IMG/VR virus record: IMGVR_UViG_3300030207_001989
Location: 1 to 25,416 of that record
From: a virus
Lineage: Duplodnaviria > Caudoviricetes
Direction: 5' to 3' (one strand)
Length of the DNA stretch: 25,416 bases
Position numbers and translations under genes: made by a program
Notes under the pieces: generated by a model
Told to the model about the DNA's origin: nothing
The model's database searches: none
What the model saw: only the letters and a program-made list of their open reading frames with translations
Part shown: positions 20,208-23,764 of the stretch, one piece after another
Numbering within the stretch: the stretch's first letter is position 1
How the letters are laid out: each line of letters begins with the position of its first letter

Positions 20208-20306
20208 ATGAACTGTGAGAATTGTAATAAAGATGTTTCGAAAGTATCATACACACTTTACAACTCAGAACTCTGTTGGGAGTGCTGGGTCGACTTTAGG
20301 GGATAA
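20208..20306 (+). CDS. C4 Zn-finger microprotein (32 aa)
   Basis: MNCENCNKDVSKVSYTLYNSELCWECWVDFRG; AGGTGA SD; abuts the upstream stop codon. Confidence 0.7.
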   Translation: MNCENCNKDVSKVSYTLYNSELCWECWVDFRG

Positions 20307-20347
20307 CCTTATATAGACAGTGCCTATTGGTAATACAGAGGAAAACC
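20305..20347 (+). promoter_or_regulatory. Rightward repeated promoter
   Basis: AACCTTATATAGACAGTGCCTATTGGTAATACAGAGG. Confidence 0.75.
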
Positions 20348-20461
20348 ATGAACACAATACAAATAATGGAAAAGATAGTAAAGGATTGCGACCGAAGAAT
20401 CGCAGAAATAAAATTCAGACAAAATGAATTACTAAGAAAAGGAATGGAGGAAAACGAATGA
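20348..20461 (+). CDS. 37-aa coiled-coil micropeptide
   Basis: MNTIQIMEKIVKDCDRRIAEIKFRQNELLRKGMEENE; GAGGAAAAC leader. Confidence 0.6.
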   Translation: MNTIQIMEKIVKDCDRRIAEIKFRQNELLRKGMEENE

Positions 20462-20529
20462 ACACATACCAAAAATGGTTAATCAGTCACATGGTTAACG
20501 TATCATACGCAACAAGAAAACTAGGATAA
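20458..20529 (+). CDS. 23-aa micropeptide
   Basis: MNTYQKWLISHMVNVSYATRKLG; GGAGG SD and ATGA overlap; shares the GAGGAAAACNNTGAACACA context with the preceding gene. Confidence 0.5.
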   Translation: MNTYQKWLISHMVNVSYATRKLG

Positions 20530-20539
20530 ACAGTTCAAA

Positions 20540-20819
20540 CCTCGAAAGGGTGGGAAGATGAAAATAGCAAAATAGTATTGCACCCACCCCGACGATTATG
20601 TTCCGTGAGTCCCCGAACACTGTAAGATGTGGCCCAAGGAGTAGGCGCACCCAACGGAAAGGGCAAGTGTATGAGTCAGTCTAATAAACTGTCCAGCATC
20701 GGGGACAATAGGAGACGCCTGACAAGTGAAGGCGAAGGGCCGTGCACTTAATGACCGCCCGAACGTTAAACGTAGCGACGTATCTCCAGCCCGGCCGTGC
20801 TGAGGTCAGCCGGGCGCCC
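20540..20819 (+). ncRNA. Candidate structured, multiply pseudoknotted RNA A (~280 nt)
   Basis: GC-enriched and without a credible ORF. Complementary segments: GGGTGGG/CCCACCC, GTCCCCGA/TCGGGGAC, TTCCGT/ACGGAA, GGCCC/GGGCC, AAGTGTAT/GTGCACTT, GGAGA/TCTCC, CGCCT/AGGCG and GCCCGGC/GCCGGGC. Confidence 0.6.
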
Positions 20820-20870
20820 TTTTCCACACGGGTGGAAAAACCTTTATATAGGCAGACCCGTTGGTATATT
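20820..20870 (+). repeat. Palindromic repeat copy 2 fused to a promoter
   Basis: TTTTCCACACGGGTGGAAAAA-CC-TTTATATA-GGCAGACCCGTTGGTATATT-ATG. Confidence 0.85.
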
Positions 20871-21865: not shown

Positions 21866-21885
21866 ACCCTCTCTATTGGTATTAC
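21852..21885 (+). promoter_or_regulatory. Repeated promoter with no downstream ORF (would drive RNA B)
   Basis: AAAGGGTTAAATAGACCCTCTCTATTGGTATTAC, followed by a hairpin instead of an ATG. Confidence 0.7.
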
Positions 21886-22229
21886 AGAGAGAGTTTCAGG
21901 GGCCGAATCCCGACTCTCTCACTTATGGTTATAGACGTATAACATCGTATACGATTAGTGACCTGAGTATTTGAGACCAGAATAGACCATACGCCAGTAG
22001 ACGACAAGCAATAACAAACTCAAGCTGAACAAGTGCTGACCAATCCCTTACCGGTCGATGCGCATCTTAGTTGATTAACGACGTGTAGCTAACATTATGT
22101 ATCACCTTTTGCCTCACTTAGTCCCTGTTATAGACTTCGTCGTCGAAGCTATGAAGTAATTCTCTGCATCTCTTTACGCCCACCTCTCGTGAAGGATATC
22201 CTTTTGATTGGTGGCAGGTCACACCCGGA
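21886..22229 (+). ncRNA. Candidate structured RNA B (~340 nt) with its own promoter
   Basis: 5' hairpin GAGAGAGT/ACTCTCTC, hairpins GTTATA/TATAAC and ATCG/CGAT, long-range GTGACCTG(21958-65)/CAGGTCAC(22215-22), and several internal stems; no ORF. Confidence 0.65.
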
Positions 22230-22894: not shown

Positions 22895-23190
22895 GCACCT
22901 GAGCAAGTCAGAAAACTGCTCGCCTTATACTTAAGGAAGTAGCTCTTCCTTATCGGGTATGGCTGAAGAAGTCCGCCACGGACTAAGGCACAGGGCACGC
23001 AAACCAAGAACCGACTGGTGGAGGAATGCGTGACTGGTATGGGTTAATACTGTAGTGGCATAAACCCATTGGAGGTATACAGCAAGGCCTCCTACCCACC
23101 TTACATTGATGCCCCTAGACCATCGTTAACGACGCGAACGAATCGAGATGGAAATGCTTTACCGGCGCCGGTATATAAGTCAGGGGCTCA
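22895..23190 (+). ncRNA. Candidate structured RNA C (~300 nt)
   Basis: Consecutive stems GAGCA/TGCTC, TAAGGAAG/CTTCCTTA, AGTCCG/CGGACT, CACGCA/TGCGTG, ATGGGTT/AACCCAT and GGAGG/CCTCC, then GCCCCT/AGGGGC enclosing CCATC/GATGG and ACCGG/CCGGT; no ORF. Confidence 0.65.
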
Positions 23191-23215: not shown

Positions 23216-23283
23216 CTTTTTCGCGTCCTCTCAGCTTAGCTCGACTAAGTATTTTTTTTTATCTCAGTAGGGCCTAGGGCCCC

Positions 23284-23407
23284 GTGAGAAAACAACACCT
23301 CAGCACAGTAGGGCAGGGTGAGAAAACAAGTCTCAGCTCAACCTAACCGCTAGGTGAGTTTTTTAGCCCTACTACGCAACGCTCAGGTGAGAAAACAGGG
23401 TGCTCAG
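23284..23407 (+). repeat. Three iteron-like direct repeats GTGAGAAAACA-N3-5-CTCAG
   Basis: Copies start at 23284, 23318 and 23387, followed by an AT-rich tract at about 23520-23700. Confidence 0.75.
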
Positions 23408-23764
23408 TGGGGCTTAACTGAGGTTGGTTCGAAAGCTTTAAAGCTCATCCTCCAAACCGGAACCAGTTCGGGTTCAGTAGAGCGAACTGTGTTCGTGAAA
23501 AGAAAGTAGAGTAAGTAGTTCTCAGTCTATATTATATTATGCTCTATAAAGAATGCTCTACTACGCAAAGCTATACTGAGTAAATTAAGCTTTACTTAGT
23601 TAAGCTCTACTATGCTCTTTACTTACAGCAATAATTAGCATAATAGAGCTATATCTTAATATAGTTAATATAGGGAATACGAACTATATATAGTTTTGCA
23701 TGAAAAAGCACCCCGTTTTTTGTCTCAGTATAGAAATCGTGCGGGGCTCTCAGTCCAACAAGGG

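Follow-up and report, generated by a model that had tools for sequence, protein, structure and literature searches.

An uncatalogued structured RNA family, resembling self-associating phage RNAs, in a likely archaeal tailed virus

The window analysed here, a 25.4 kb fragment (25,416 nt) of a tailed-virus genome that is about 36% complete, carries a structured RNA, referred to as RNA A, which belongs to an uncatalogued RNA family. The family resembles the self-associating phage RNAs without belonging to any of them. The initial annotation had proposed a compact RNA that it could match to none of the classes it considered, and a compact, conserved, structured non-coding RNA with no Rfam counterpart is supported by homologues and pair counts; the 280-nt element that it outlined is indeed a structured RNA, although its true core is 187 nt long (20601-20787) and consists of a pseudoknotted domain and a four-way junction carrying a K-loop. 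Tentatively, and with somewhat less than even confidence, we regard RNA A as a scaffold or decoy RNA that would be processed, self-associate and, in the lineage of the window, dock L7Ae.

Genome setting and host

The genes of the window include those for capsid, portal, terminase, exonuclease and an AAA ATPase. Between about 18900 and 23200 it contains short plus-strand genes, each preceded by a repeated TATA-type motif, with a distance of 28-29 nt from motif to ATG in at least eight cases among those listed. The relative G002 is complete, at 67 kb with terminal repeats, and encodes PolB, an AAA plus VWA pair and a GT4 glycosyltransferase (25 of 42 ORFs scanned) as well as a B12-type ribonucleotide reductase (10 of 42 ORFs scanned); neither a primase nor a chaperonin was identified among the 25 scanned ORFs. 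A squalene/phytoene synthase-like protein is also encoded by G002 (L377:6448-7053).

The accessible text on magrovirus group E (Krittikaviridae) reports PolB, a CobT-type VWA protein and a GT4 glycosyltransferase in genomes of about 80 kb (PMC11706807), and the genes of G002, compared by description only, include those for PolB, a VWA protein and GT4. On this basis, the host is probably an archaeon, likely of the Poseidoniales. In the magrovirus literature checked, non-coding RNAs go unmentioned, and a term search of PMC10160649 was likewise negative. A search with the capsid protein found no named relative, a GTDB search found no related locus and annotated phages gave no match. The sole exact GTDB match, considered as a possible cellular copy, sits within a long bacterial ORF, which we take to be topoisomerase I-like, and is attributed to chance.

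Two DNA-level features of the region were also observed. A 21-nt palindromic repeat is present in five copies (window 19936, 20820, 21514, 22230 and 23198), three of which lie directly 5′ of TATA boxes, and is likely an operator of the early promoters. The stretch from about 23230 to 23760 contains no genes; its recurring short motifs and A/T-rich tract are laid out as in G002, and it is possibly an origin or genome end region.

The features of RNA A and its surroundings are as follows.

20303..20337, plus strand: TATA-type early promoter, the nearest one upstream of RNA A (repeat family D1)
20348..20461, plus strand: small ORF of 37 aa (from sequence), first gene of the presumed transcript
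20458..20529, plus strand: small ORF of 23 aa, from a conserved early-region peptide family (21-23 aa) often found 5′ of the RNA
20548..20589, plus strand: 5′ hairpin, an optional module that contains an inner hairpin and a conserved A-rich internal loop (18 of 61 homologues)
20595..20600, plus strand: WUUANR spacer, candidate processing signal (37 distinct flanks)
20601..20706, plus strand: domain 1, comprising P1, P2, P3a, P3b and P8
20601..20659, plus strand: supported pseudoknot, 20601-05 with 20655-59 (pair counts and divergent copies)
20681..20687, plus strand: 7-nt anticodon-like loop (YUAAHAM), which we take to be a U-turn
20711..20787, plus strand: domain 2, four-way junction and family core (92.7% paired; in 13 of 18 pairs both partners have changed)
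20717..20733, plus strand: K-loop (CUGA, 5-nt loop, GA-W-G), predicted L7Ae site
20770..20774, plus strand: apical pentaloop of L7, ACGUA, which includes a 4-nt palindrome and is clade-specific
20789..20815, plus strand: optional 3′ hairpin, then a U tract; likely the 3′ end or a terminator (46 of 61 homologues)
20820..20840, no strand assigned: palindromic DNA repeat just 5′ of the next promoter, outside the RNA (repeat family D2, 5 copies)
22932..23102, plus strand: manA RNA, part of one RNA island with RNA A and 2.1 kb downstream of it (Rfam 62.6 bits, gathering score 55.2)

Architecture of RNA A

Domain 1 is made up of P1 (20609-16/20699-706), P2 (20617-21/20666-70), P3a (a variable hairpin at about 20628-49), P3b (20650-52/20661-63) and P8 (20678-80/20688-90), which carries the 7-nt loop. 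Domain 2 contains the stems P4 (20711-16/20782-87), P6 (20737-40/20757-60) and P7 (20763-67/20777-81), and its junction runs in the order P4, P5, GAA linker, P6, GA linker, P7. Invariant unpaired letters (A at −3, UGAG and UAA) cluster at the 5′ edge and at the junctions. We infer the plus strand from the promoter direction, the G-U pairs inside P1-P3 and the UUCG caps; the G-U test is itself not clean, in that three terminal C.A pairs would become G-U on the minus strand.

Further contacts were considered and rejected. By inspection, covariation was absent between the UUA spacer and the U-turn loop and between L5 and L7, and the loop of P3a, tried as an anti-Shine-Dalgarno mimic, is not conserved.

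Homologues and covariation

The neighbouring exonuclease gene gave access to 80 loci, 15 of which had clear nhmmer matches over the core, and further homologues were collected through exact sequence patterns. The final set contains 61 distinct two-domain sequences with a mean identity of 73%, the truncated row L250 having been dropped. To be included, a sequence had to have a 5′ UUCC-N-UGAG, an L7 loop of one of two kinds and the L5 loop, and the invariance of these elements is therefore partly by construction. A scan with a variant L7 loop returned 115 loci and a single real member (the L080 record), whilst six model matches at E 0.01-0.08 were set aside, of which the four inspected were non-members. 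An L7 entry for L048 had picked up the wrong site and was disregarded.

Covariation was assessed with a G-test, background correction and a custom tree-based null of 60 replicates. Thirteen pairs covary significantly among the 61 sequences (E below 0.05), every one of them inside a single model. Separate pair counts gave 94.2% and 92.7% of cells paired, compared with 28-55% in slid controls, and none of 500 shuffles reached these fractions. No protein ORF is conserved across the region: the lengths split 17/29/15 over the three frames, and the stop-free frames present on either strand in 23 of the 61 homologues include none common to them.

All segments quoted in the initial annotation were found in place, and its local helices were confirmed. 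The closing stem of domain 1 is paired in 396 of 410 cells and that of domain 2 in 301 of 305 over five pairs; within domain 2, where CGCCT/AGGCG had been noted, the pairing 20717-19/20731-33 holds, and position 20652-20661 of the CCC/GGG hairpin shows each of the four pair types. The 3′ hairpin recurs in ten stem variants. The 5′ hairpin exists as described, although it is a separate module that is also found in other positions.

The three interlocking pseudoknots that had been envisaged reduce to one. In the first (TTCCGT/ACGGAA), five pairs are present in 61/61 sequences and the sixth in 26/61 only. Position 20605-20655 is G-C in 30 sequences, A-U in 30 and U-A in one, and divergent copies keep the pseudoknot with other letters, over 7 bp in L156 and L160 and over 5 bp in L060 and L213; judged by eye, it is likewise retained in L166 and L394. 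The pairing may form either within one molecule or between two. The second pseudoknot (GGCCC/GGGCC) is paired in 211 of 305 cells and intact in 14 of 61 sequences, with a best E of 390, and the third (AAGTGTAT/GTGCACTT) is paired in 266 of 486 and intact in 4 of 61, with a best E of 900. The strands of both pair locally and their covariation is absent; with the third rejected, its AGTGT strand pairs instead with ACACT at 20617-21 as P2 (286 of 305 cells, three significant pairs). There are no significant pairs between the two domains.

Nor is the density of tertiary-type pairing unusual, as had been thought: across 20540-20819, complementary segments are not above chance when compared with 30 dinucleotide shuffles, whether counted at 5 bp or more (26 versus 20.3±3.5), at 6 bp or more (6 versus 5.4±2.1) or at 8 bp with G-U pairs (3 versus 4.0±2.3). 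The plus-strand folding energy is no better than that of dinucleotide-shuffled controls (z −0.39), whilst that of the minus strand is (z −2.26); values for parts of the stretch (−0.75 to −1.52) are uninformative.

In the window and in 13 relative loci, Rfam 15 at E up to 1 matched nothing but the flanking tRNA and manA, leaving 20540-20819 unmatched; the manA covariance model (RF01745), run on the same interval at E up to 1, also gave no match, and ARAGORN found nothing. No description of RNA A was found in a literature search that lay largely outside subscription papers, supplements and RNA catalogues.

Transcription, flanking modules and processing

RNA A lacks a promoter of its own. Among the 51 homologues with enough upstream DNA, 50 have no promoter within 45 nt and one has a TATA-like motif; in the window, the promoter at 20303..20337 likely drives the transcript that contains RNA A. 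In 33 of the 61 homologues the RNA begins 1-12 nt past the stop codon of a small ORF, and in most of the others a small hairpin module lies in between. The upstream peptides fall into at least four unlike families (judged by eye), and one resembling the product of the 37-aa ORF directly precedes the RNA in L008 and L159.

Contigs from marine RNA libraries, which give neither strand nor ends, cover RNA A in two of four runs at a depth of 3.5-10.5, resembling nearby coding parts, and cover the peptide ORF 20458..20529 in three of four; this suggests that RNA A is transcribed. One contig extends from the peptide gene to 28 nt into domain 1, which is below the 31-letter bridging threshold.

The position after stop codons, the missing promoter and this bridging contig are consistent with a 3′ UTR element acting in cis to protect or boost short early mRNAs, with its stems, a K-loop-bound protein and the hairpin blocking 3′-5′ decay. 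We consider this rather unlikely. The upstream ORF family is freely exchanged, manA likewise sits after stop codons, a stabiliser needs no palindromic kissing loops, and the remote relatives L024, L036, L045 and L054 follow another non-coding RNA, which is manA-like, with no ORF directly in front. Remote members also precede tRNA-Glu(UUC) (L045:1319-1394, L077:1013-1088 and L224:708-785), leaving no room for a promoter behind them. Such flanks point to RNA arrays rather than to a fixed mRNA partner.

The 5′ flank of the pseudoknot has an A at −3 in 37 of 37 distinct flanks and UUA at −5 to −3 in 25 of 37, against a background of about 2%. The same UUA precedes 7 of 9 promoter-less copies of manA and 0 of 3 promoter-bearing ones, as counted in 12 pattern-caught copies that leave out the manA of the window. 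The spacer is thus a candidate processing signal common to RNA A and manA; an A/U-rich stretch overlapping with stop codons would be another explanation. A stop-codon readthrough or frameshift signal was rejected, given that spacer lengths range from 1 nt to more than 100 nt and that frames opened at NUG in the 5′ strand run for 2-38 codons.

Several neighbouring elements were observed in the same island. RNA B (window about 21885-22225) is a conserved RNA with its own TATA promoter and no Rfam match; in each of the four RNA runs, coverage of the region is highest here (depth 7-98, and 39-98 and 60 in the two runs that cover RNA A). The manA RNA (window 22932-23102), here in a likely archaeal virus, often follows a stop codon or small module and lacks a promoter of its own. 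The hairpin module at 20548-20589, whose layout we would liken to the apex of T-box stem I, is mobile and has a covarying inner stem; it precedes or follows several RNAs and was seen in 28 distinct contexts, including after RNA A and, in L022, directly behind a promoter. Other small elements are an interchangeable hairpin module with a T-arm-like loop before RNA B (21888-21919), which precedes RNA A in 5 of 61 homologues, an interchangeable module with a short possible pseudoknot ahead of manA (about 22898-22921), and a small conserved hairpin stretch after manA in some relatives (23110-23160).

Remote relatives and palindromic loops

A covariance model of domain 2 was used to find remote relatives. 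A family member is carried by 25 of 32 exonuclease-anchored loci with at least 3 kb of upstream DNA: 14 are of the window's type, 5 of a second type and 6 of a third, and in 7 none was seen in the DNA available. Most of the remote types lack domain 1, keep the junction and have a longer P6, and they have often lost the guanine of the K-loop; in most remote relatives, a hairpin similar to P8 lies ahead of domain 2.

A hairpin with a 7-nt loop made up of one base and a 6-nt palindrome is present in 19 of 24 variants whose P6 measures at least 50 nt, compared with a mean of 1.3 and a maximum of 5 in 300 shuffles. The remote types have the palindromic hairpin at one site in 15 of 16, with six different palindromes on varying stems, and a seventh palindrome, all-A/U and with a weak self-duplex (0.0 kcal/mol), is found in 7 of the 8 long variants that belong to the window's type. 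These counts come from related, non-independent sequences and overstate the number of events. Adjacent bases cannot pair within one loop, and the palindromes therefore point to pairing between two molecules. Consistent with this, palindrome switching marked intermolecular bridges seen by cryoEM in OLE and GOLLD, according to the accessible part of PMC12286853, and manA is described in the available text of 10.64898/2026.07.01.735769 as building cages via intermolecular kissing loops. We infer from this signature that the long relatives would form symmetric kissing dimers.

Of the initial suggestion of a ribozyme-like or scaffold RNA, it is the scaffold that is backed by palindrome switching in the long relatives, whereas positive evidence for a ribozyme is missing. 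The 6-nt palindromic hairpin occurs in none of 32 short variants, the window's copy among them, and self-pairing of this copy is for that reason a weaker proposition. The window's copy does have a 6-nt palindrome in P6, which most relatives lack, and the pentaloop ACGUA of L7 is a candidate weak self-kissing site. The L7 loop is fixed within clades and different between them; the window has a 4-nt palindrome there, L080, L224 and L024 have different ones and the second type has none. On our own post hoc reading, three of about seven L7 types are palindromic.

The short variants without a kissing hairpin and this clade-wise constancy of L7 could also fit an RNA that acts as a monomer, either sensing a ligand or protein or serving as a decoy, with loops (GACAA, the U-turn and L7) that bind one host factor and with dimerisation as a side feature of long variants. 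We judge this unlikely: the RNA has neither a 5′ UTR position nor an expression platform, and the persistence of GACAA and the GAA/GA junction across the family, which would favour it, is qualified by the fact that the GACAA letters were part of the search patterns. A separate observation concerns a T-loop-like hairpin beside the palindromic hairpin in remote members (L054:3112-3222, L074:134-283, L048:5486-5637 and relatives), the loop of which resembles the pseudoknot loop of domain 1.

The 5′ domain

The invariant unpaired letters at the 5′ edge and junctions, the compact three-way junctions and the retention of the pseudoknot with other letters could be explained if domain 1 were a new ribozyme, freeing the RNA by self-cleavage at the 5′ edge of the domain. 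This is doubtful, since the strand order differs from that of the HDV-like, twister, pistol, hammerhead and glmS folds, there is no Rfam match, the UUA spacer also precedes manA, which has no such domain, and domain 1 is missing altogether from most remote relatives. HDV-like (theta) ribozymes have a nested double pseudoknot in which the 3′ strand of P1 follows P3, and their catalytic C lies in J4/2; RNA A has one pseudoknot, with its 3′ strand inside P2 and P3b, and was rejected as a member of this class. To our knowledge, its fold matches no ribozyme topology.

That the pseudoknot clamps the extreme 5′ strand and starts just past stop codons would also suit an xrRNA-like roadblock at which exonucleolytic mRNA decay stops, leaving the RNA behind. 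We regard this as improbable, given that the remote relatives lack the domain and that aRNase J is, in the accessible text of PMC7144898, reported absent from Thermoplasmatales and Archaeoglobales.

The K-loop

From 20719 to 20731, the K-loop consists of C U G A and G A W G on either side of a 5-nt loop whose last base is U. The tandem G.A (20721/20729) and A.G (20722/20728) pairs are present in 61 of 61 sequences, which is partly forced by the search pattern, and the K-loop was also found in 15 of 15 loci collected via the exonuclease gene; the adjoining pair is U.U in 40 and U-A in 21. L7Ae is described, in the available text of PMC3884654, as reading the guanines of the tandem pairs and binding K-loops, which bacterial YbxF does not bind. 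L7Ae binding is thus plausible in the window's lineage, as judged from this motif. Across 56 distinct family variants, the 1b position is G in 43 and A in 13, and L7Ae binding is consequently not a family-wide function.

The K-loop is of the type found in archaeal box C′/D′ and H/ACA RNAs, according to the accessible parts of PMC3884654 and PMC5539422, with which RNA A shares CUGA, a short loop and GA-W-G on a short stem, the tandem G.A/A.G pairs and the U before the first G. In contrast to archaeal guide RNAs, RNA A has one K-loop on a four-way junction, has no guides, terminal C/D boxes or ACA, and has A for G at 1b in the 13 variants noted above. As general background, a box C/D guide RNA has terminal C and D boxes and unpaired guides of 10-20 nt 5′ of D and D′, whilst a box H/ACA guide RNA has a single hairpin with a pseudouridylation pocket and a 3′ ACA. 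When the alignment was tested, terminal boxes were absent and the segment 5′ of CUGA proved to be the covarying stem P4; for H/ACA, there was a four-way junction and a variable 3′ tail instead. A guide RNA, an antisense RNA or a DNA-level element, which the C′/D′-type K-loop and the well-folding minus strand might suggest, is therefore already largely refuted and very improbable, there being moreover no match of an RNA A loop to an early mRNA start among the matches listed, and the G-U pairs frequent inside P1-P3 and the UUCG caps reading on the plus strand.

Proposed role

Under the tentative scaffold or decoy reading, the early small-gene transcript would carry RNA A as its tail, and the UUA spacer would be the site at which it is cut free. 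The freed RNA would self-associate into a scaffold or decoy particle. In the window's lineage, the K-loop of this particle is predicted to bind L7Ae of the host, and the particle might, as a guess, tie up this RNA-binding protein early in infection. A fuller version, of an undescribed archaeal-virus RNA family that is released at a manA-type signal and forms kissing-loop multimers, with the window's form displaying K-loops to titrate L7Ae, would be an ambitious reading and is on the whole not likely to be right; in this version, the window's lineage would have given up the 6-nt kissing arm in exchange for a form decorated with protein. If true, titration of L7Ae would disturb the assembly of ribosomes, RNase P and guide RNAs.

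Comparison with known RNAs

With four helices around one junction and P4 stacked on P7, RNA A shares features of a tRNA-like cloverleaf; it differs from tRNA in its junctions of 0-1, 3, 2 and 0-1 nt, in having no T-loop at L7 and in a CCA end that is not conserved. The closest setting is that of manA (RF01745), which lies in the same RNA island with the same UUA spacer in front and, in the accessible text of PMC2864571 and 10.64898/2026.07.01.735769, is like RNA A a marine viral, multi-branched RNA of less than 200 nt with loop-loop pairings. RNA A has different stems, together with the 5′ pseudoknot domain and the K-loop, and a likeness based on 12 common letters near 20773 was rejected because the letters pair differently.

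According to the available part of PMC12286853, OLE, ROOL and GOLLD show palindrome switching in a hairpin loop, as do the long relatives of RNA A, and ROOL and GOLLD are phage-borne, lie near tRNAs and have no known function. Those RNAs are several hundred nt long and bacterial (PMC12286853), whereas RNA A has no Rfam match and the window's own copy has no kissing hairpin. Whilst ROOL, GOLLD and manA have solved structures and unknown functions, the RNA A family would be a small and modular example of the self-assembling type in a likely archaeal virus, with a K-loop that names L7Ae as a candidate host partner. Among its natural variants, the kissing arm, the pseudoknot domain and the predicted L7Ae site are each present in some and missing from others, and each of these modules lends itself to separate study in vitro.
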